A stretch of 10,311 bases of DNA, from assembly GCA_031283585.1 (NCBI GenBank), contig JAITBP010000004.1, positions 1 through 10,311 of the forward strand, in the 5' to 3' direction. A program made the position numbers and the translations under genes. The notes under the pieces were generated by a model. That model was not told where the DNA came from and made no database searches. It saw only the letters and a list, made by a program, of their open reading frames with translations. This DNA is from Puniceicoccales bacterium. GTDB lineage: Bacteria; Verrucomicrobiota; Verrucomicrobiia; Opitutales; LL51. Shown here piece after piece: positions 613 to 10,311 of this stretch. Every line of letters starts with the position of its first letter. The first letter of the stretch is position 1.

Positions 613-1614
613 TTATTTTTTGGGATTTGCTTTTCCTGAAATTATAGCATTTGGGTTGCGTTCTAAATAATCTGCAAGCTCTTTTAATGATTTTGCCGCC
701 ATGGTTATTTCCTGAATAGCATCACCTAACCCATACTTAAGTTTCTTTTCTTCACGGAACATATTGTTTATAGAGCTGGACATATTTCCAAATTTATCGA
801 GAGCCAATTTACCACTGGCTAGTGTGGATCTTGTTTTGTCTGAAATTTTATTTACATTGGTTTTTAATATTGCTACAAAATCTTCGATAGAACCTAATGT
901 ATCATTAAAGTGCTTGAAGGTATTTGAAAAATCCGGTGAATCAAAAACTCTACCTATGGACTTGGCGGCAGAAGTCATTCCACTGACCATGGATTTTAGG
1001 TCTATGTTACTGAGAGTGTTGTCCGCTGTGGAAAGAATAGACGAAATCCTATCAAAAATTCCAATGAAATCGATTTTACTGATTTTTTTGATTATAACCT
1101 CGATGCTGCTCAGAAGTTCATCGATGCCGGAAGGTGTGGTTGGTATCTGAATATACTTGGTGCTATTTGTAGAGAATATGCGGATTTTTTTTGATGCATA
1201 GTAATCTAATTCTATAAATAATTTTCCTGTTACAATGCTTTCAAACGTTAATTTTGCAGCCAAGCCTTGTTTTATTTGTTTTTTGTAAAATTCTATGTTA
1301 TCCTCACCACTGGATTCATCTTTTACTGTATCAAACATTGAATTATCTATCTCTATTATCACCGGAGTAATGGATAAATCTTTGTCTTTGTCATAGAATA
1401 TGGATATTTTTTTTACGTTACCGATAGTAACTCCCTTAAATTTCACTGGAGATCCCACATCCAGGCCATTCAGTGATGAATCGAAATACAGAATAAATTT
1501 GTTTGTGCTATGGAAAAAATTGCCTTTGGAAAATAATAGGATGAATGATAATAGGACAGCAAACGAGCATACTATAAACATTCCTATGGCTAATGAATTG
1601 GCTTTTTTACTCAT
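613..1614 (-). CDS. MlaD/MCE-family substrate-binding protein (one N-terminal TM helix, single MCE domain, helical C-terminal region)
   Basis: 333-aa ORF. N-terminal TM segment (LAIGMFIVCSFAVLLSFILLF), MCE core (YFDSSLNGLDVGSPVKFKGVTIGNVKKISI) and C-terminal LKELADYLERNPNAIISGK, all typical of MlaD/PqiB-type proteins. Its ATG overlaps the upstream ATPase stop in ATGA (1611-1614). Confidence 0.88.
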   Translation of the reverse strand: MSKKANSLAIGMFIVCSFAVLLSFILLFSKGNFFHSTNKFILYFDSSLNGLDVGSPVKFKGVTIGNVKKISIFYDKDKDLSITPVIIEIDNSMFDTVKDESSGEDNIEFYKKQIKQGLAAKLTFESIVTGKLFIELDYYASKKIRIFSTNSTKYIQIPTTPSGIDELLSSIEVIIKKISKIDFIGIFDRISSILSTADNTLSNIDLKSMVSGMTSAAKSIGRVFDSPDFSNTFKHFNDTLGSIEDFVAILKTNVNKISDKTRSTLASGKLALDKFGNMSSSINNMFREEKKLKYGLGDAIQEITMAAKSLKELADYLERNPNAIISGKANPKK

Positions 1615-2420
1615 TTGTCATTCAACATTCCTCTTGAAAGAAAGTATTTTACTTTAGTGTGAAAATTTTCAAGTAATTGATTTGGTGAACCAATTGCCAG
1701 TACAGTTTTGGAATCGGCGTCAAGATACATTGCATTATCTCCAATGGCGAAAATACTATGCAAATCATGGGTTACGATCAGCATGGTAGTTCCAAGGGTT
1801 TTTCGTAGCTTGAGTATTAAATTATCGAGATTATTTGCGCTGATTGGGTCCAGCCCGGCCGATGGTTCATCGAGGAACAGTATGTCCGGATTAAGAGCAA
1901 TTGCTCTTGCCAGGCCGGCGCGCTTACGCATTCCTCCTGAGATTTCAGATGGATATAGGTGACCATGGTTTTCAAGTCCTACCAGCGATAGTTTCATATT
2001 TACCGCTTCTTTAATTTCGGATTTGGTCAGATTTGTGAATTCCTCCAGTACCAATGCTATGTTTTCCACTAATGTCATTGAACTCCATAGGGCTCCGCTT
2101 TGATACAGCACACCAAAGCGTGTTGCAAGTGGTTTGTCCGAATCATTTAATATATTTATAAAATCCGCACCATCATAGAACACTACTCCCTGGTTCGTAG
2201 GCTTTAGACCGATCATGTGTTTCAATAGTGTGCTTTTACCACAGCCACTCTCACCGATTATTAAAAAAATTTCACCAGCCTTTACGTTAAAACTAATATC
2301 GTTCATCACGATGGTTTTCCCATAGCTCATGGTCAAATTTTTAACTGAGATCTTATCTGCCAACGGATTAAGACTTATGAAATTGAGTAATTTGTAAAGA
2401 ATAACTGTGATTTTAAGCAC
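1611..2420 (-). CDS. mlaF: MlaF-like ABC transporter ATP-binding protein
   Basis: Walker [18 protein letters not shown] (MlaF LFQSGALF), signature [19 protein letters not shown], Walker [14 protein letters not shown]-loop VTHD, C-terminal VKYFLSRG. The start is uncertain: the track start at 2420 is GTG, and an in-frame TTG at 2363 (giving [10 protein letters not shown]...) would produce a more typical N-terminus. Neither has a clear Shine-Dalgarno sequence. Confidence 0.92.
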
Positions 2421-2533
2421 TAAAAGTGCAGAAATTTAAATTATTTTGGAAGAATTGCAAAAAAAAGCTTTACTACGGAGATAGGGTTCCTACTCATCCG
2501 CTTGGTAGTAGGTTTATATATAGAGGTTTTTCC

Positions 2534-2635
2534 ATGGGAAATCTGAAAAAAAAGCGCAGGTTAAAAATGAATAAGCATAAACGCAGCAAGCGTTCGCGAG
2601 CTAACAGACATAAGAAGAGAACCTGGGGAAATTGA
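2534..2635 (+). CDS. 33-aa highly basic protein, bS22-like (AURKAIP1/COX24-type) small ribosomal protein
   Basis: Internal ATG at 2534 of the 2426..2635 ORF, preceded by AGAGG (2522-2526) with a 7-nt spacer. Product [33 protein letters not shown] has the same length and MGxxxKKRRxxMxKxKxxK pattern as mycobacterial bS22 as I recall it ([33 protein letters not shown]). Confidence 0.65.
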
Positions 2636-2640
2636 TTTGA

Positions 2641-3411
2641 TTGCTTTTTGATGTGCGTACTGTTGTTGCCATACCAGCGAGATGGGCTTCTAGTAGATTC
2701 CCAGGTAAGGTATTAGCTGATTTAGATGGTGTGCCGATTTTAAAACGCGTATGGAACAACGCCTGTTCCGTTGTTGGCATTGATGAGGTGATAATCCTTG
2801 TGGATAATGATAAGGTTTACCTCGAAGCAACTTCTTGGGGTGCAAGAGTTATGGTTACATCACCGGATTGTTCCTGTGGAACGGAGAGAATAGCCTCGGT
2901 GTTGGGTAAGATCGATGGCGATTTTATTATAAACCTACAGGCTGATGAGCCGCTTCTGGACCTAGATGTCCTTGAGAAGATGGTACAATTTGCTGAAAAT
3001 AACAGCTGCCAGATGGTTACACCGGTGTTCAAACTCGTTGCTGGCGAAGATATTTTCGATGCTAATCTGGTAAAAGTTGTGGTAAATCCTGGCGGCGAAG
3101 CGATGTATTTTTCCAGGAGTCCGATACCATTTATTCGGGATGAAAATGATAGATCTAAATGGCCAGGCTACTATGATTTTCTTGGTCATATAGGTGTCTA
3201 TGGCTATTCAAGGGAAGTTTTAGCGAAGTATTACTCATTGCAACCCAGTAGGCTGGAGGATATTGAGAAATTGGAACAGTTGCGGTTTTTAGCCAATGGG
3301 GTTAGGATCCATACGTTGATGGCCAGCGGGCCAACCATCGAAATAAATACGCCGGAAGATATGGCTAAGGCAATGAGGTTTTTGAGTAGTTCTAAAAGTC
3401 ATCTGTCATAG
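2641..3411 (+). CDS. kdsB: 3-deoxy-manno-octulosonate cytidylyltransferase (CMP-KDO synthetase)
   Basis: N-terminal VAIPARWASSRFPGKVL, GTERIA, NLQADEPLL, YFSRSPIPF, HIGVYGY, LEQLRFLANG: the canonical KdsB motif series at the expected length (256 aa). The start is TTG 2641 or in-frame GTG 2653, which I cannot resolve. Confidence 0.9.
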   Translation: MLFDVRTVVAIPARWASSRFPGKVLADLDGVPILKRVWNNACSVVGIDEVIILVDNDKVYLEATSWGARVMVTSPDCSCGTERIASVLGKIDGDFIINLQADEPLLDLDVLEKMVQFAENNSCQMVTPVFKLVAGEDIFDANLVKVVVNPGGEAMYFSRSPIPFIRDENDRSKWPGYYDFLGHIGVYGYSREVLAKYYSLQPSRLEDIEKLEQLRFLANGVRIHTLMASGPTIEINTPEDMAKAMRFLSSSKSHLS

Positions 3412-4898
3412 ACTTCGGCCAATTCACGAAGGGTTTCAGCGGATTTTCCCAGTGTAAAAAATTGGTCTTCGGTCATCCGCCAGGTCCAGTTATTTGTTTG
3501 GGTTCCCGGGGTATTTAGTCTGGCATTTTGATCCAGGCCTAGAATGTCCTGGGTGCAGATTATGGCCGTGTTACAAGGTGATTTGTAGGCTTCGGTCAGA
3601 AGGGCCCAGACCAGAGAGTTGTCATCGGATTTTACATAGCGCCTGATGTTGTGTTTATCTATCTCGCCCAGAGAGTTAACCCAGCCCCGTAGGGTATTGT
3701 TGTCGTGGGTACCGGTGTACATGACGTTGTTTTGGTATTGGTTATGTGGCAGGTAGGTGCTTTGTGGAAAATTTGAAAATGCAAATTGTAAAACGGCCAT
3801 GCCTGGGAAACCTGTAGTTTTTAGCAGGTCTGTCACGCCTTTGTTCAGTTCCCCCAGGTTTTCGGCGATGCATTCCAATTTTGGGAATTTTTTTTTGATG
3901 ACTTTGAAAAAATCAACTCCTGGCCCAGCATTCCAGGAGCCATTTTTGGCAGTTTCTGAACCGAAAGGTACAGCCCAAAAGTCATAAAACCCACGAAAAT
4001 GATCCAGCCGTATCACATCGTAGAGTTCGAGATTTCTTTTAAGACGGTCTAGCCACCATTTGTAATTTATCTCCTTGAGCACCTGCCAGTTATACAATGG
4101 ATTTCCCCAAAGCTGTCCTGATTCCGAGAAGTAATCCGGAGGAACACCGGCCAGCTGGGTTGGGCGATTTTTGTCATCAAATAGGAAGATTTGTTTATTT
4201 GCCCAGACATCAGCGCTGTCCAGCCCAGGGAAAATCGGGATATCGCCGATTAGCTTGATGCCATTTTGCTGGGCATAGCTTCTGAGATCCGAGAATTGTT
4301 TATGGAAAACGTATTGTATGGCCTTGTGTATGTTGGCCAATTTTATCACTTCCGATGGAAGTTTTTTCAGATCCGATGAGGATGAAAATTCGGCTGGCCA
4401 CTGGTACCAGGGTTTTTTGTCAAAATACTCTTTCAGTGCCATGAAGTTGCAGAACGGATCAAGCCATTTTGCCGAACTTTTGAATTTATTAAAACCTTCG
4501 TCCAGGTTTTTGTATTTTTTTAAAAAATTTTCCGATGCCGAAAATATTATGGGCCAGAACAATTCATTGAGCTTGGAAAAATCAACCCGATCTCTTGAAA
4601 GTTCGGCTAAAGGTCTCGTATCTTCTTTGGATAAAAGGCCTTCGTTCACAAAATAGTTCAGATCTATCAGGTATGGATTACCGGCGAAGCTGGATAGACT
4701 CTGGTAGGGAGAGTCGCCGTAACCTGTTGGCGATAGTGGACAAACCTGCCAATATTTTATTTTGCCTGCCCGTAGAAAGTTCAGGAAATTTTTGGCATTT
4801 CCATCGATACAACCGATGCCCTGGTCGCTGGGAAGGCAGGTCAGGTGATGCAAAATTCCTGCAGAACGTTGTTGTAGACAATTGAATAGATGTTCCAT
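3399..4898 (-). CDS. malQ: 4-alpha-glucanotransferase (amylomaltase, GH77)
   Basis: About 500 aa with SPYQSLSSFAGNPYLID, GDIPIF...DSADVW, WGNPLYNW, IRLDHFRGF, IAENLG and YTGTHDNNT, the GH77 catalytic motif set. I prefer ATG at 4898 (AAAGGGA Shine-Dalgarno 5 nt upstream) over the track's TTG at 4901. Confidence 0.92.
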   Translation of the reverse strand: MEHLFNCLQQRSAGILHHLTCLPSDQGIGCIDGNAKNFLNFLRAGKIKYWQVCPLSPTGYGDSPYQSLSSFAGNPYLIDLNYFVNEGLLSKEDTRPLAELSRDRVDFSKLNELFWPIIFSASENFLKKYKNLDEGFNKFKSSAKWLDPFCNFMALKEYFDKKPWYQWPAEFSSSSDLKKLPSEVIKLANIHKAIQYVFHKQFSDLRSYAQQNGIKLIGDIPIFPGLDSADVWANKQIFLFDDKNRPTQLAGVPPDYFSESGQLWGNPLYNWQVLKEINYKWWLDRLKRNLELYDVIRLDHFRGFYDFWAVPFGSETAKNGSWNAGPGVDFFKVIKKKFPKLECIAENLGELNKGVTDLLKTTGFPGMAVLQFAFSNFPQSTYLPHNQYQNNVMYTGTHDNNTLRGWVNSLGEIDKHNIRRYVKSDDNSLVWALLTEAYKSPCNTAIICTQDILGLDQNARLNTPGTQTNNWTWRMTEDQFFTLGKSAETLRELAEVYDR

Positions 4899-4922
4899 CA
4901 AAATCCCTTTAACAGATTCTTG

Positions 4923-7079
4923 TCAAATTAGTTCTGATGCCAATAAAATTTCTCGATTTAGAAAAATTCCATGCTTTTCATATACCAGTTCTCTGGCGAT
5001 TTTTATCAAGGTTTTGACATCATTTGATGAAGCATTGCCGTTGTTTACTATGAAATTCGCATGTTTTGGCGAAATTGATGCACCGCCGATCCGGGTGCCT
5101 TTCAGTCCGCAGTCATCGATCAACCTTCCGGCCGACAGGTCTGGTGGATTTTTGAAGACGCTGCCGGCACTTGGAGCCACGGGTTGTGATGCTAACCTTT
5201 TACGCATGAATGCCTTCGATGCATCCATTATGTCTTTAACCGGTGCCTTGCTTTTGAATTGGAACGTGGCCGATAGTATTGTTCCTGATTTTGCATCGAT
5301 GCCGGATCTGTAACTAAACTGAATATCTGATTTATCAAGATTGTGTATTTTACCATTGGGATCCAGCAGTTTAACCGAAATCAATGGGTCAAAAATTTCC
5401 CGGTTGTTGGCCCCGGCATTCATGACTAGCGCTCCACCGATGGTTGAAGGAATGTTGCCCAGGCCGACCATATCCATGAACCCATGGGTGGCGACACGAT
5501 GGCATAGTGTTTTCAAAGATGTTCCAGCGAAAGCTATTACGGTTTCTTCATCAGGCCATATAATTTGCTTCCAGTGGTTATTTGTCAGGGCTATCACGGC
5601 ACCATCGAATCCTTCGTCGTCGAAAAGTATGTTGGATCCGTTGCCGAGAATGAGGTGAGGAAATTGGTATTTTTTTAGCATGGATAGAAGGTTGACTAGA
5701 GCATCTAGATCATTTGGCTCGGCGAAAATCTTTGCCGGTCCTCCTATTTTGAATGTGCTATGGTCCGCCAATTTTGTGGTCGTTGACAGCAGAATAGCCT
5801 CAGCTAATCCATTCGCATTCAGGGCATTAGTTATTTCGACCGTTTTTATATCTCTCACCAGGGCGTTGGCCATTAGGTTCAGATTGCCGGCGCCGATGAA
5901 CAGCAGATTTGCATCATCAGCCATTGCTGTAATTTGCGATACTTTTTCCCCTAGGTCCTGCTTGGTCTCAGAAAGGGAAACGTCCCAGCCATGGCATAGT
6001 TTCAATAAATCCTCGCTGGTACCTCCGGGAATTTCGTTGATTTCATCGGATTTGTACACCGGAAGAATGATAGCTTTGCCGGATTTTTTCAAAATTTCTG
6101 AAAATTCAACCAGGTACTGCTTCGTCCTGGTATATCTGTGGGGCTGAAACAAGATATGGTTTTTTTTGTCAGATTTCGATGCGATGTAGGCCGAGATTTC
6201 CGTTGGATTGTGAGCATAGTCACAGAAGATCGCATGGCCATTAATGGTGCCAAGGAAATCATTTCTGCGTAGCAACCCCTTGAATTTGTCTATCTTACTT
6301 AGATCTGGGCGGGCTCCGATGATGGCTTCAAAGGCACTGGAAACGGCAGCCAGGTTGTGGGCCTGGAATGAACCAGCATCCGGCTGAAATTCCACTGGTG
6401 CATGGTTGGCTTTGTTGGCCAAGTCTCTCAGTGCTTTGTCGTCTTGCGGCACAATTATCCTGTGGCTGGTTTGCAAAAATAGCTTAAAAATTGCTTTCTT
6501 CATAGACTCAAAGGAGCCGTAATTGGCCAGATGGTCGTCATCAAAATTTAACATTACCGTTATGTATGGGGCAAAATTTTCGATGGTACCATCGCTTTCA
6601 TCTACTTCACAAACAAGCAGTTTTGAATCTTTGTCAAAATTTGCTGGCAAAAAATGGTCCCTGGGTAGCGCTCCAATGATATGGCTAAAAGGAACCTGAT
6701 GTTCTTTAAGTAGATAGGTTAAAAATGCAGTGACGGAACTTTTTCCATGGGAGCCGGTGATTGCCACAAGTTTTTTATCTTTTGCGATTTTTGCCAAAAA
6801 TACACCGCGCCGCGTACATTCTAGATTGTTTGCATCAGCGTAATCAAATAAAAAATGATTTGGCCGGATAGCACTGGAATATATCAGCTGGTCGATGGAA
6901 TTTGGCAAGTGCCTGCCAGATAAAACTACAACGTTATTTTTCTCCAACAGAAGGGCCATGGATTCATTTTCGTTGTCGTCCCAGCCATAAACTGTATGTC
7001 CTTGTTGTGCAATGTATATAGCCAATGGAGCCATGCCCATCCCAAAGGCACCGACGAACATAAAATTTTTAAAGTGCAT
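4923..7079 (-). CDS. murC/murB: Fused UDP-N-acetylmuramate--L-alanine ligase (N-terminal ~415 aa) and UDP-N-acetylenolpyruvoylglucosamine reductase (C-terminal ~290 aa)
   Basis: MurC part: FVGAFGMGMAPLAIY...GHTVYGWD (Rossmann), ITGSHGKSSVT (P-loop), DYAHNPTEI, FQPHRYTRT, FIGAGNLN. MurB part: TFKIGGPAKIF, ILGNGSNILF, GLGNIPSTIGGALVMNAGA, FSYRSG, SAGSVFKNP, AGRLIDDCGLKG..IGGASISPKHANFIVN. It is one uninterrupted ORF. Confidence 0.9.
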   Translation of the reverse strand: MHFKNFMFVGAFGMGMAPLAIYIAQQGHTVYGWDDNENESMALLLEKNNVVVLSGRHLPNSIDQLIYSSAIRPNHFLFDYADANNLECTRRGVFLAKIAKDKKLVAITGSHGKSSVTAFLTYLLKEHQVPFSHIIGALPRDHFLPANFDKDSKLLVCEVDESDGTIENFAPYITVMLNFDDDHLANYGSFESMKKAIFKLFLQTSHRIIVPQDDKALRDLANKANHAPVEFQPDAGSFQAHNLAAVSSAFEAIIGARPDLSKIDKFKGLLRRNDFLGTINGHAIFCDYAHNPTEISAYIASKSDKKNHILFQPHRYTRTKQYLVEFSEILKKSGKAIILPVYKSDEINEIPGGTSEDLLKLCHGWDVSLSETKQDLGEKVSQITAMADDANLLFIGAGNLNLMANALVRDIKTVEITNALNANGLAEAILLSTTTKLADHSTFKIGGPAKIFAEPNDLDALVNLLSMLKKYQFPHLILGNGSNILFDDEGFDGAVIALTNNHWKQIIWPDEETVIAFAGTSLKTLCHRVATHGFMDMVGLGNIPSTIGGALVMNAGANNREIFDPLISVKLLDPNGKIHNLDKSDIQFSYRSGIDAKSGTILSATFQFKSKAPVKDIMDASKAFMRKRLASQPVAPSAGSVFKNPPDLSAGRLIDDCGLKGTRIGGASISPKHANFIVNNGNASSNDVKTLIKIARELVYEKHGIFLNREILLASELI

Positions 7080-7086
7080 CTTTTTT

Positions 7087-7115
7087 AGTATAAGTTTGTC
7101 GCGGTTTTATTTAAA
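7087..7115 (-). promoter_or_regulatory. Candidate sigma70-type promoter for murC/murB, placed so the transcript would be leaderless
   Basis: On the minus strand: TTTAAA (7115-7110), 17-nt spacer, TATACT (7092-7087), 7 nt (AAAAAAG), then ATG at 7079. There is no Shine-Dalgarno sequence upstream of this ATG, whereas priA, malQ, the bS22-like gene and the pseudopilin gene all have one. Based on motif inspection only. Confidence 0.3.
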
Positions 7116-7123
7116 CATTAAAA

Positions 7124-7158
7124 TGTGTAAAAATATTGCGATTTTTTGTGTAAAATAT
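7124..7158 (+). repeat. Direct repeat TGTGTAAAA(A)TAT x2 in the murC/murB-priA divergent intergenic region; the second copy contains a -10-like TAAAAT
   Basis: TGTGTAAAAATAT at 7124-7136 and TGTGTAAAATAT at 7147-7158, starts 23 bp apart. TAAAAT (7151-7156) lies 25 nt upstream of the priA ATG, with GAAGG (7171-7175) as the Shine-Dalgarno sequence. No good -35 is present. A role as promoter or operator is inference. Confidence 0.4.
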
Positions 7159-7181
7159 CGGATTAATTTAGAAGGTTAGCT

Positions 7182-9386
7182 ATGCAATTGGCCAGAGTAG
7201 TTTTGTTTTCGGCGGTGGATAGGGCATTTGTTTACATCGTCCGGAAGGAGCTGGTCGATGTGCTAGTGGTTGGCATGTTGGTCCAGGTACCGCTGGGCCC
7301 CAGGTTGGTCCAGGCTGTTGTGCTGGAATTGATTGATTCCGATGGTGATAGTTATGAATTTGAGCTCCGCGAAATTTCTAGTATAGTCCATGCGGTTCCG
7401 GTGGTAAGTAATGATGTCATCGCATTATGTCGTTGGGTATCAGAATATTATAATGCGTCATTGGCCAGTGTTTTCGAGTGTGCTGTGCCCAGCGTTTTGC
7501 GTAGAAATTTCTCAACCAGGTTATCAACGGTGATAAAGGTAGCTAAGTTGTTGGATGATAATGAGTTACTGAAACTATTTCGTAAAGCTCCAAAGCAGCA
7601 TCAGGCCTATAGTTATCTCAGGACCGCCGGTGGTTGCCCGAGGAAGGACTTGCTGGAATTGTTTTCGGTAAGTGTGGTTAACAGCTTGGTCGACAAAGGG
7701 ATATTTATCGAAGAATTTCGGAATGAACCGCGGCTGGCCCAGGACGATGACCAGGCCGAGGGTCATGGTTTTCGGGCCCTGACATTAACCAAAGCCCAAC
7801 AGGCCGTGGCAGATGACATAAAGGCCAGTTTGGCTAGGCGGTTGTTTTCCGTACATTTGCTTCAGGGCGTTACCGGATCCGGAAAAACTGAGGTATATCT
7901 CGATGCTATAGAAAGTGTTATAAAACATGGCGGCGAGGTTTTATATCTGGTACCTGAGTTGGCTTTGACGCCGCAGACGTTGGCCAGAATTCGGAATCGG
8001 TTTTCTGGGTACGGTGTGGTGCTATGGCACAGTAACCTTTCAGACGGAGAGAGAAAGGACGCATGGCTGGCCATTGCCAGTGGTGAAGTCAGTGTGGTTG
8101 TTGGGGCCAGATCCGCCCTGTTTGTACCGCTGAAAAATCTGCAGTTGGTAATTGTGGATGAGGAGCACGACCAATCCTACAAGCAGAGTGACCAGCCCAG
8201 GTATAACGGGCGGGATGTGGCTGTGTACCGGGCAAAACTTAACGATGCGCTGTGTATTTTAGGTTCGGCGACGCCGTCGACCGAGTCCTACCTCAATGTG
8301 TACCATAAGGGTTACAGGTTGAATGAGTTGAATCAGCGTGTCGGTAATAGTAGGTTGCCAACGATCCATTTGGTTGATAGAAGATATGAAAAATGTATTA
8401 TTTCTAACCTGTTGCGCGACAAGATCTTTGACAGGCTTGAAAAAAATGAGCAGGTGATTCTATTGCTCAATAGGAGGGGTTATGCGCCGACGGCCCTGTG
8501 TCCTAGTTGCGATTATGTGGCCAGATGTCCGAATTGCGATGTTTCCCTATCCTATCATCGCAGTCAGCAGGCGATGAAGTGCCATTTTTGCGGATACACC
8601 GAGCCACCGAGGACGAATTGCCCGAAGTGTGGTGGGTTGGAGATATTTTACAATGGCGTTGGTACGCAACGGCTTGAGCAAATTATTTCCGGGATGTTTC
8701 CCGGGGCATCCATTGCCCGGATAGATTCCGATGTCATGAGAAAAAAAGATGAATTTCGTATAATTTTATCAAAGTTTAGGAAAGGCCTTGTGGATATTTT
8801 GCTTGGAACCCAGATGATAGCTAAGGGGTTGGATTTTCCGAATGTCACGTTGGTTGGTGTGGTTGATTGCGATATCTCGTTGAATGTGCAGGACTTTCGG
8901 TCCATGGAGAGAACATTTCAGATGATCGTCCAGGTGGCTGGAAGAGCAGGGCGTGGCGACAGGAATGGTGAGGTTGTGTTGCAAACATTTAGGCCGGAGT
9001 GTATGGCCATAACCAAGGCTCGGAGTAACGACTTTTATGGTTTTATGGAGCTGGAGCTGGCCACCAGGCGGCATTTTGGTTATCCTCCCTACCGGAAGCT
9101 AATTCGGCATGTTATAATGAGTAGAAATGAGACCAAGGCGGAATTTTTTGCAAACAATTGGGGCCTATTTCTGGAAAAAAACATCACCGACCCGACCCTG
9201 GAGATGAAAGGCCCGACAAAATGTATGATTGAGAAGATAAACGGTTGGTATAGGTTTGCAATCTATTTTTTTGTGGTCGGTTCGGTGGGCAGTAGGGTAA
9301 AGACCCTCGATGCGCTGAGGAAGGAATTCGCCTTTCCTCGGGACATCAGGGAATACCTGGATGTGGATCCAGCGGACTGCGCCTAG
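7182..9386 (+). CDS. priA: Primosomal protein N' (replication restart helicase PriA)
   Basis: 734 aa. N-terminal 3'-DNA-binding-type region (VQVPLGPRLVQAVVLEL), Walker A GVTGSGKTEVY, DEEH box VIVDEEHD, Cys-rich zinc region CPSCDYVARCPNCDVSLSYH...CHFCGY...CPKCGG, helicase C motifs LGTQMIAKGLDFPNV and QVAGRAGRG. Confidence 0.95.
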   Translation: MQLARVVLFSAVDRAFVYIVRKELVDVLVVGMLVQVPLGPRLVQAVVLELIDSDGDSYEFELREISSIVHAVPVVSNDVIALCRWVSEYYNASLASVFECAVPSVLRRNFSTRLSTVIKVAKLLDDNELLKLFRKAPKQHQAYSYLRTAGGCPRKDLLELFSVSVVNSLVDKGIFIEEFRNEPRLAQDDDQAEGHGFRALTLTKAQQAVADDIKASLARRLFSVHLLQGVTGSGKTEVYLDAIESVIKHGGEVLYLVPELALTPQTLARIRNRFSGYGVVLWHSNLSDGERKDAWLAIASGEVSVVVGARSALFVPLKNLQLVIVDEEHDQSYKQSDQPRYNGRDVAVYRAKLNDALCILGSATPSTESYLNVYHKGYRLNELNQRVGNSRLPTIHLVDRRYEKCIISNLLRDKIFDRLEKNEQVILLLNRRGYAPTALCPSCDYVARCPNCDVSLSYHRSQQAMKCHFCGYTEPPRTNCPKCGGLEIFYNGVGTQRLEQIISGMFPGASIARIDSDVMRKKDEFRIILSKFRKGLVDILLGTQMIAKGLDFPNVTLVGVVDCDISLNVQDFRSMERTFQMIVQVAGRAGRGDRNGEVVLQTFRPECMAITKARSNDFYGFMELELATRRHFGYPPYRKLIRHVIMSRNETKAEFFANNWGLFLEKNITDPTLEMKGPTKCMIEKINGWYRFAIYFFVVGSVGSRVKTLDALRKEFAFPRDIREYLDVDPADCA

Positions 9387-9387
9387 G
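9318..9387 (+). repeat. Copy A of a 64-70-nt repeat (the native 3' end of priA including its stop codon)
   Basis: 9318-9333 is identical to 9999-10014 and 9340-9387 is identical to 10015-10062. The only difference is 6 nt (ttcctc, 9334-9339) present here and absent in copy B. Confidence 0.9.
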
Positions 9388-9388
9388 G

Positions 9389-9844
9389 TTATGGTTTGAC
9401 CTTAACCTCTATCTTGCCATCTTTAAACTCATAGGTGCCTGTGCCACCATTAGTACTCACGACCGTTAGTGTTTTAGTGTCACTAACATAACTAAAGTCC
9501 CACGGCGCCCCCCAGGGATCCAGTGGGATAGTACTGTCGAAAAAGTTCGCTAGCCCATTTAGGTTTGCTGTTGCAGGAGAAGCATCAGTAGCAGCCGTCA
9601 CCTTTATGCCATCAAGCGCTTTATTTACCAAGACATCATTATAATCCTTGTAGGCATAGAGGGCACTGCAGGCGGCTTTGACGGTGGATTCCAGGAAGGC
9701 CTTGGCGGCTTTCTTTTTACCGGAGTCCAACACACCACCCATGTTGCTGATACCCACACCGGCCAACACGGCTATAAGGGCGATGACAATCAGGATCTCC
9801 ATCAGCGTCATAGCCCGGTCTCTGTTTTTTAATATTCCATCCAT
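9389..9844 (-). CDS. GspG-like type II secretion pseudopilin with a prepilin-type N-terminal cleavage/methylation domain
   Basis: Short basic leader MDGILKNRDRA, then MTLMEILIVIALIAVLAGVGISN (Glu at +5, hydrophobic helix), GGVLDSGKKKAAKAFL, and LDPWGAPWDFSY matching the GspG DPWG motif. Strong Shine-Dalgarno sequence upstream. Its stop lies 2 nt from the priA stop (convergent). Confidence 0.85.
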   Translation of the reverse strand: MDGILKNRDRAMTLMEILIVIALIAVLAGVGISNMGGVLDSGKKKAAKAFLESTVKAACSALYAYKDYNDVLVNKALDGIKVTAATDASPATANLNGLANFFDSTIPLDPWGAPWDFSYVSDTKTLTVVSTNGGTGTYEFKDGKIEVKVKP

Positions 9845-9852
9845 AAATCAAA

Positions 9853-9858
9853 CTCCTT
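9853..9858 (-). promoter_or_regulatory. Shine-Dalgarno sequence AAGGAG for the pseudopilin gene
   Basis: The reverse complement of 9853-9858 is AAGGAG, 8 nt upstream of the ATG at 9844. Confidence 0.7.
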
Positions 9859-9904
9859 TTAAGATTTTTCTGCGTAGCAGTTTAGACAAAAACCGTACAT
9901 TGGC

Positions 9905-9948
9905 AAGAAAAAACAAAAAAAACGAAAAAAAACGAAAAAACAAAAAAA
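9905..9948. repeat. Array of five A-tracts (A6, A8, A8, A6, A7) separated by C or CG; T-rich on the pilin-coding strand
   Basis: gcaagAAAAAAcAAAAAAAAcgAAAAAAAAcgAAAAAAcAAAAAAAtgc. Tract centres are spaced about 8, 10, 9 and 7.5 bp apart. The array lies 61-104 bp upstream of the pseudopilin ATG (9844). Confidence 0.8.
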
Positions 9949-9996
9949 TGCAGCCAGCACAGTTACCAGTGTGATAGCGATCAAAATTTCCATCAT
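9949..9996 (-). pseudogene. Orphan fragment of a prepilin N-terminal hydrophobic helix (no leader peptide, no globular domain)
   Basis: Minus-strand ATGATGGAAATTTTGATCGCTATCACACTGGTAACTGTGCTGGCTGCA encodes MMEILIAITLVTVLAA, against pilin 1 LMEILIVIALIAVLAG (10/16 aa identical, 31/48 nt). The reading frame then runs through the T-tract array as Phe-rich low complexity to a TAA at 9859-9861 (45 codons in total). It abuts the priA relic with a 2-nt gap. Confidence 0.55.
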
Positions 9997-9998
9997 CT

Positions 9999-10062
9999 AG
10001 GAAGGAATTCGCCTGGGACATCAGGGAATACCTGGATGTGGATCCAGCGGACTGCGCCTAGG
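9999..10062 (+). pseudogene. Copy B of the repeat: relic of the priA 3' end (last 20 codons plus stop), not part of any ORF
   Basis: Would encode RKEFAWDIREYLDVDPADCA*, against native RKEFAFPRDIREYLDVDPADCA*. An in-frame TAG lies 24 nt upstream (9975-9977) and similarity to priA stops at 9998/9999. All 64 aligned nt are identical to 9318-9387. Confidence 0.85.
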
Positions 10063-10311
10063 CTTTGGGTATGATATCAACAGTTATCTTTCCATTTACA
10101 AACGTATAATTGCCTTTGTCACCATTACTACTCTCGACCTTTAGGGTAGGACCTATTACGTTCTTGTCGCTCTTATCAGCATAACTAAACTTCCACGGCG
10201 CCCCCCAGGGGTCCAGTGGGGTAGTACTGTCGAAAAAGGTCGCTAGCCCCTTTAGGTCCGTAATTGGAGTATTAGCATCCGTTGTTATGTCCTTAATCTC
10301 AGCCTTTACAT
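10058..10311 (-). CDS. Second GspG-like pseudopilin paralog; only the C-terminal ~84 codons are in the window
   Basis: My translation (open to the window edge): ...VKAEIKDITTDANTPITDLKGLATFFDSTTPLDPWGAPWKFSYADKSDKNVIGPTLKVESSNGDKGNYTFVNGKITVDIIPKA*. It aligns with pilin 1 (...NLNGLANFFDSTIPLDPWGAPWDFSYVSDTKTLTVVSTNGGTGTYEFKDGKIEVKVKP*). Its stop (rc of 10058-10060) shares the CCTAGG palindrome with the relic priA TAG. Confidence 0.85.
   Translation of the reverse strand, partial: VKAEIKDITTDANTPITDLKGLATFFDSTTPLDPWGAPWKFSYADKSDKNVIGPTLKVESSNGDKGNYTFVNGKITVDIIPKA

Follow-up and report, generated by a model that had tools for sequence, protein, structure and literature searches.

Recombination in the lpl lipoprotein cluster of Staphylococcus aureus takes place at a conserved stretch present in every open reading frame (ORF), and the 3′ end of a gene remains linked to the adjoining intergenic region and to the 5′ end of the following gene (Tsuru & Kobayashi 2008, PMC2568036). 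Homologous recombination between tandem paralogues has also been documented for T7SS immunity genes (PMC9484751). The pilE/pilS system of pilin antigenic variation in Neisseria gonorrhoeae has silent cassettes and a G4 initiator as its defining features (PMC3547852). The locus compared with these systems here, a tandem of pilin genes next to priA, is situated at the right end of the window, i.e. the whole analyzed stretch of 10,311 nt, which corresponds to the complete contig C2 of an assembly comprising 818 kb in 13 contigs (95% complete).

The priA gene occupies positions 7182-9386 of the plus strand and its ORF contains all PriA domains. Its last 69 nt (9318-9386), the true 3′ end of the gene, are the source of a relic found elsewhere in the window. 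Convergent with priA lies a complete pilin gene, termed W_C, on the minus strand (9389-9844), whose ORF encodes a GspG-like prepilin of 151 aa. A second pilin ORF on the same strand, W_B (10058-10311), is represented by its last 83 codons only and runs off the contig end. Directly 3′ of W_B, a non-coding relic of the priA tail was detected by alignment (9999-10060). On the pilin strand the relic is followed by an orphan prepilin helix fragment of 16 codons (MMEILIAITLVTVLAA; 9949-9996, minus strand), to which it is joined, and then by a region upstream of W_C (9845-9948, minus strand) comprising a T-tract, a promoter-like site (TTGCCA-16-TAAACT, 9906-9879) and the ribosome-binding site AAAGGAG. 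On the other side of priA, a single ORF of 718 aa on the minus strand (4923-7079) has Mur ligase and MurB domains and corresponds to a MurC-MurB fusion; the gene call on a Logan contig revealed the same pair of domain families. The left end of C2 overlaps the right end of contig C4 by 119 nt, thus C4 and C2 are adjacent.

The product of W_C exceeded the cut-offs of PF07963 (N_methyl; 24.9 vs. 21.2 bits) and TIGR02532 (22.9 vs. 16.3 bits) and contains a prepilin motif with Glu at position +5 (RA↓MTLMEIL). By contrast, the scores for PF08334 (15.4 bits, cut-off 21) and for TIGR01710 GspG (E = 4.8e-9, 36.3 bits, cut-off 88.85) remained below the thresholds, and the protein is therefore called GspG-like and not a GspG equivalog. 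The best solved relative was PulG (PDB 5wda), in which PQDPWGSDYQL was aligned by phmmer to PLDPWGAPWDF of W_C (E = 2.5e-4). The AlphaFold2 model (mean pLDDT 61) had a pilin-like secondary structure, consisting of a helix (residues 14-64), a disordered loop (79-94), a second helix (96-102) and four strands (116-150). A Foldseek search with this model against the PDB gave no significant match. What W_C has in common with GspG and PulG is the prepilin leader, Glu5, the long N-terminal helix and the DPWG segment. What separates it from them, besides the scores below the curated cut-offs, is the predicted prepilin peptidase site (9811-9816, minus strand), where all pilins of the family possess Ala-Met or Ala-Met-Thr-Met instead of the usual Gly-Phe, and the position of the pilin genes, which are not located beside genes of a secretion machine. 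The genome harbors three T2SSE ATPase genes and one Peptidase_A24 gene, all with scores above the cut-offs; the single Peptidase_A24 gene is situated at C7:37880-38224.

The first-pass annotation had drawn attention to an ungapped match between 9487-9564 in W_C and 10180-10257 in W_B (both on the minus strand) with 72 identities in 78 nt, and recomputation gave the same count. The W_B copy was also recovered by gapped comparison with the W_C block, and repeat detection placed the pair inside a 103-nt family (9487-9589 vs. 10180-10282, 84% identity). A chance match of this quality within 10 kb is negligible. In W_C the block comprises codons 95-119, i.e. the helix end, the DPWG loop and the first beta-strand of the GspG-like head, and the protein reading of both copies is L(N/K)GLA(N/T)FFDST(I/T)PLDPWGAPW(D/K)FSY. 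The six differing bases fall into five codons. As stated previously, one difference is synonymous (GAT/GAC), and the other four codons change the residue (N/K, N/T, I/T and D/K, the latter with two differing bases). The earlier count of 21 identical codons out of 26 was right in substance, the exact figure being 20 out of 25 complete codons, which is a trivial difference.

The earlier statement that identity at the wobble positions exceeds the effect of protein-level constraint was confirmed. Among the 19 codons specifying the same residue in both copies, 18 were identical, compared to 6.6 expected from the codon usage in 340 long ORFs of the same genome (P<2e-6). Many of the shared codons are rare (GGG 11%, GCG 13%, CCC 15%, CTA 15%). 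It is true that the block is the signature motif of the family and that D-P-W is encoded by the same codons even in the distant pilin A on contig C10. Yet constraint on the DPWG segment combined with codon bias, operating with neither recent exchange nor duplication, is so improbable an origin of the block that it can practically be dismissed, and as a sole cause it was rejected by the codon counts. Old paralogs with conserved residues are saturated at synonymous sites. The pilin gene at the end of C10 served as a control, since it shares the conserved N-terminal helix of W_C. In the N-terminal part, only 14 of 30 codons were identical to those of W_C (9.8 expected), with a dS of 1.14 and a dN of 0.31 overall and a dS of 1.68 in the helix. 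Thus, constraint alone does not fix codons in this genome, and the codon bias named by the first-pass annotation as a possible cause does not explain the block, the shared codons being often rare. Pilin A contains DPWG but consists otherwise of unrelated DNA (28-35 identities in the 78 nt of the block). Moreover, constraint on a protein would not apply to the adjoining non-coding priA relic, which is identical to its source at 63 of 63 positions. As the wobble identity lies far above what constraint and codon usage would yield, the two blocks share recent DNA ancestry, by duplication or by conversion. Folding of the block and the relic as RNA gave no structure signal (z-scores -1.7 to +1.0).

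The young segment is considerably longer than the block. By gapped alignment, homology was followed from 9318 to approximately 9589 and from 9999 to approximately 10282, i.e. over at least 250 nt, and the spacing between the copies is 675-693 nt. In this order, the repeat contains the last 69 nt of priA, the pilin stop region, the C-terminal strands, the block and about 25 nt of weak similarity. The flanks had been described as aligning poorly. This does not hold for the 3′ flank, which aligns well once one 6-nt and one 12-nt in-frame indel in the C-terminal strands are allowed and which runs into the priA relic; the 5′ flank could be followed for only about 50 nt beyond the block, and the contig ends at 10311 inside W_B. 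In the tail (codons 121-151), 12 of 16 same-residue codons are identical (5.7 expected, P=8e-4), so the recent DNA ancestry is not confined to the block. From codon 95 to the end of the gene, 25 codons differ between W_B and W_C, five of them purely synonymously, giving a dN of 0.227 and a dS of 0.21. With a dN/dS of about 1 and all indels in frame, the diverged appearance of the flanks is owed mainly to accumulated replacements and to in-frame indels.

Regional values were determined by the method of Nei and Gojobori; samples were small, with 16-19 codons per region in the comparisons of block and tail. The block had a dS of 0.058 and a dN of 0.107, the tail a dS of 0.375 and a dN of 0.343, although this dS value of the tail is alignment-dependent and rose to 0.66 when four sequences were aligned instead of two. 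For codons 80-94, which are only 15 codons and align poorly, a dS of about 1 and a dN of 0.66 were calculated. Lower synonymous divergence in the block than in its flanks had been expected from the first-pass annotation. In comparison to the tail alone this was not significant, purely synonymous codons numbering 1 of 19 in the block and 4 of 16 in the tail (Fisher p=0.16). It became significant when the relic, with 0 differences in 63 positions, was pooled with the block (Fisher p=0.002), and the block also differed from the old N-terminus (p=0.0006). A single duplication does not account for the modest, but real, surplus of synonymous changes in the tail. Because synonymous divergence is uneven among relic, block and tail, a single duplication followed by nothing but point substitution is an imperfect fit. 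This leaves a later re-homogenisation of block and relic or an uptake of foreign or paralogous sequence by the tail. A similar indication comes from the orphan fragment, in which 9 of 48 positions differ from the closest relative while none differ in the relic.

It is conceivable, on these grounds, that the two genes are old paralogs in which a discrete short gene-conversion tract of about 80 nt around DPWG and, separately, the relic were recently overwritten. We consider this unlikely, though it deserves to be weighed. A conversion of this kind would account for the block dS of 0.058 against the nominal 0.375 in the tail and the value of about 1 in codons 80-94, as well as for the significance of the pooled comparison. 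However, a tail that has kept 12 of 16 codons is not old in the way of the paralogs with dS>1, the difference between block and tail alone is non-significant, and two tracts of 63-78 nt around an unconverted gap of 110 nt are less economical than one copied segment. Hence, of the exchange between genes postulated earlier, the recent shared DNA ancestry stands, whereas the discrete 78-nt tract in old flanks does not, the young segment being at least 250 nt in length.

The relic and its junction give information on how this segment was copied. The relic differs from the true priA tail by one 6-nt deletion only. This deletion removes part of the GAGGAAGG...CCTTTCCTC hairpin of the priA tail, and no terminator-like site was found in the relic. 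The stop codon of W_B is a TAG inside the palindrome CCTAGG, which also holds the TAG of priA on the opposite strand; W_C stops two codons earlier with TAA (CCA TAA CCC TAG). The best match of the orphan fragment is the pilin N-terminus at the C10 end (80% over 45 nt). One might suspect that 9999-10311 is merely a strain variant of 9318-9600 that was wrongly joined, given that the 13 contigs stem from a metagenome assembly, that the contig ends inside the second gene and that the deletion in the relic is in frame. Such an artefact is very improbable. Relic, deletion and orphan junction are also present on L031, an independently assembled contig that differs at 13 positions. In addition, a Logan contig of run SRR14710909, which corresponds to positions 861-9369 of the window at 99.93% identity, continues for exactly k-1=30 nt beyond the 6-nt site that distinguishes the priA tail from the relic, into sequence common to both, and ends there. 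The branch coincides with the point from which tail and relic are identical, as would be expected at a repeat in a graph with k=31. Left of the junction only 16 nt are shared, which are too few for a k-mer misjoin. The junction between relic and orphan is real. Relic, orphan and spacing together represent the anatomy of a head-to-tail duplication whose unit extended from inside the pilin N-terminus to inside priA.

L031 was detected by a protein search, which yielded two close relatives on this single JGI metagenome contig of 1,317 nt from a very close relative. It contains pilin gene M1, M2 after a further 33 nt, the priA relic, the orphan fragment, the T-tract and promoter, and the first 60 codons of a third pilin gene, M3. 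Like W_B, M2 ends with the TAG of the CCTAGG palindrome. From the relic onward, L031 and the window are 96.6% identical (373 identities, 13 mismatches, one 12-nt indel), with 62 of 62 identities in the relic; the region upstream of W_C is thereby kept. Further alleles were not found by protein-based scans of metagenome and genome contig collections, and exact-pattern scans for the block in metagenome contigs and for the relic in genome contigs were negative. A homology search with the W_B fragment returned only W_B itself, and exact look-ups of W_C and PriA gave no match. The first 60 codons of M1, M2, M3 and W_C are near-identical, with 2-6 nt differences and a dS of 0.03-0.07. The family follows a layout of a constant 5′ half, a variable loop, the DPWG block and a variable tail, so that the conserved framework with variable surface segments proposed for the two genes of the window also applies to two further members of the family. 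In every pair, conserved residues are nearly always encoded by the same codon, and dN equals or exceeds dS in block and tail. Between W_C and M2, 18 codons differ and none of them synonymously (P=0.0096 against neutrality). Judged from these sequences, the family is young at silent sites and fast at replacement sites. L031 may be the orthologous locus of a sister strain. It may also stem from the same array, as an additional unit whose short length prevented binning, in which case M3 would be the 5′ half of W_B. The conclusion on the block stands under either reading.

The right end of C2 overlaps no other contig end. The missing 5′ half of W_B may be the N-terminus of the C10-end pilin, because the right ends of C2 and C10 face each other at a distance of about 14 codons, both are dead ends and the orphan fragment is most similar to the C10-end gene. 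On the other hand, it may be of the constant type found in every family member on L031, and the first codons of W_B (GTA AAG GCT GAG) resemble those at the corresponding place in M1 (GTA AAT GCT GGG). The contig ends at 10311, C10:25460 and L031:1317 are independent of one another, and all three cut a pilin gene within codons 57-72, where the constant 5′ half passes into the variable loop. With three contig ends inside pilin genes, the array is probably larger than assembled, which should be considered in annotation, as should the fact that the priA-like 63 nt at 9999-10060 are a relic. The regions upstream of W_C (9879-9948, minus strand) and of the C10-end pilin (C10:25170-25289, plus strand) have the T-tract, TTGCCA and AAAGGAG in common, and their alignment contains 48 identities in 72 columns. 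Further A/T-tract strings of this kind (84-93% over about 41 nt) were located at C12:62971, C1:53780 and C12:49110. The shared T-tract may represent a UP-like promoter element that is common in this genome. Upstream of pilin A and beside accB/accC, a gene at C10:22801-23463 (minus strand; L032 7802-8464) encodes a protein of 220 aa with a prepilin N-methylation motif. Several unrelated pilin-like genes thus cluster at the C10 end, away from any secretion-machine genes.

Two genomes of the same genus (G001 and G002) have a different arrangement, in which priA adjoins a small lipoprotein gene. This gene (L026 at G002:C79, 793-1053; L027 at G001:C35, approximately 95-345) encodes Pro/Ala/Lys repeats and an LxxGC lipobox. 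In G002 a single pilin gene lies on the far side of the lipoprotein gene on the same contig, and in G001 the pilin gene is located on a contig other than that with the priA-adjacent lipoprotein gene. In the genome of the window the lipoprotein gene is missing, and the pilin stop is only 2 nt away from the priA stop. From this comparison, the pilin expansion appears to be specific to this lineage.

Several observations bear on recombination among the copies. Between the block and the stop codon, the comparison of W_B with M2 gave 142 identities, 41 mismatches and 38 gap columns; identity then jumps to 100% at the stop codon and remains at 96.6-100% from there onward. The last strand of W_C matches M2 with one difference in 37 nt and does not match W_B. 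In a triple alignment made by hand, 22 informative sites support W_C=W_B, 29 W_C=M2 and five W_B=M2, the W_C=W_B pattern of the block giving way to W_C=M2 in the tail. Their clustering was significant for the maximum run (12 sites, p=0.0075) and by maximum chi-square (p=0.019), the latter rising to p=0.17 without six doubtfully aligned sites. This pattern fits recombination among copies, although lineage-specific acceleration could mimic it. The block core reads ACT...GCG in both W_B and W_C, compared with GAT...CAG in both M1 and M2. Such sharing looks like homogenisation within a genome and would favor the short conversion tracts discussed above, but it concerns five sites, and the argument is gone if L031 belongs to the same array. 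A diversity-generating retroelement was rejected as the source of variation, since no RVT_1 match was obtained in the 95%-complete assembly and the differences run in both directions and include indels.

It might further be asked whether the locus is a working system of pilin variation, comparable to pilE/pilS in effect but operating without silent cassettes or G4. RecA would then swap loops and tails between full-length co-oriented genes, anchored in three homologous regions (constant 5′ half, DPWG block and priA relic), and the filament surface would change within a host population. Were this so, a genome-reduced bacterium would possess an active surface-variation device. The alternation of constant and variable parts (constant/variable/constant/variable/constant), the strong differences between window and L031 in the genes 5′ of the relic as opposed to the conserved sequence that begins at the stop codon, the M2-type last strand of W_C, the presence of RecA in the genome and the three contig ends at codons 57-72 would all be in line with such a system. 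Nonetheless, we regard it as improbable. The cassettes spoken of in the first-pass annotation were not recovered in promoterless, 5′-truncated form: a start codon is present wherever the 5′ end of a copy is included (ATG in W_C, M2 and M3, with M1 being cut off by the start of its contig), and the 16-codon orphan is the sole truncated piece. A search for the motif G3+N1-7 x4 on both strands of the window, the last 3 kb of C10 and L031 did not reveal any G-quadruplex. Furthermore, the 818-kb assembly contains only two block-bearing copies, and slow evolutionary recombination combined with selection explains all patterns equally well.

The explanation we favor, and hold to be probable, is a young tandem segmental duplication after which the GspG core was kept under purifying selection and the surface segments diversified, with some recombination among the copies. 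At the beginning, one copying event would have duplicated a unit of about 681 nt head to tail, comprising a pilin gene together with 69 nt from the 3′ end of the convergent priA. It would have left the non-coding priA relic behind the upstream pilin and the 16-codon pilin fragment at the junction. The core of the pilin head, FFDS..PLDPWG.PW.FSY, which is the signature segment of GspG-type pseudopilins, would then have been held by purifying selection, while many replacements and in-frame indels have accumulated in the loop that precedes the core and in the beta-strands that follow. We infer selection as the cause from counts in two to four related sequences. Loop and strands have a dN/dS of about 1 or higher, in keeping with exposed surfaces on which selection is diversifying or relaxed. 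In addition, segments were probably transferred from gene to gene by homologous recombination within three shared regions (constant 5′ half, block and relic), which would account for a share of the differences beside substitution in place.

The locus offers a small and clean example showing that surface-filament genes diversify even in a genome of 818 kb. After tandem copying, the structural core is retained and the exposed loop and strands evolve rapidly, while a fragment of the essential neighboring gene priA, carried along, marks the duplication event. This suggests a pressure on the pilin surface exerted by the host, phages or competitors.

With the pilE/pilS system the locus shares pilin genes whose N-terminal half is constant and which contain internal conserved blocks as well as variable segments, and the presence of RecA. 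Pilin loci of N. gonorrhoeae are followed at their 3′ side by a conserved repeat, the Sma/Cla repeat, and in the locus studied here the priA relic takes this position. The differences are that promoterless silent cassettes and a G4 element are lacking here, that only two to five copies are known, and that the genes encode GspG-like pseudopilins and not class I type IV pilins. With the lpl cluster, the agreement comprises tandem co-oriented genes for surface or secreted proteins, a conserved nucleotide stretch within each ORF between variable regions, and relatedness that appears to differ between segments of one ORF. The conserved unit from the 3′ end to the next 5′ end also has its counterpart, here made up of relic, orphan, promoter and constant 5′ half (96.6% identity between L031 and the window). 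The pilin genes differ from lpl in that each gene is conserved in two places, both in the 5′ half and in the DPWG block, and in a unit that carries a dead fragment of the unrelated essential gene priA; the incongruence between segments comes here from two loci and is weakly tested (p=0.0075 to 0.17). It is a known kind of evolution, ordinary for surface-protein families, and opens no new mechanism. By this comparison, the tandem-paralog evolution of the lpl cluster is the closest description of the locus.
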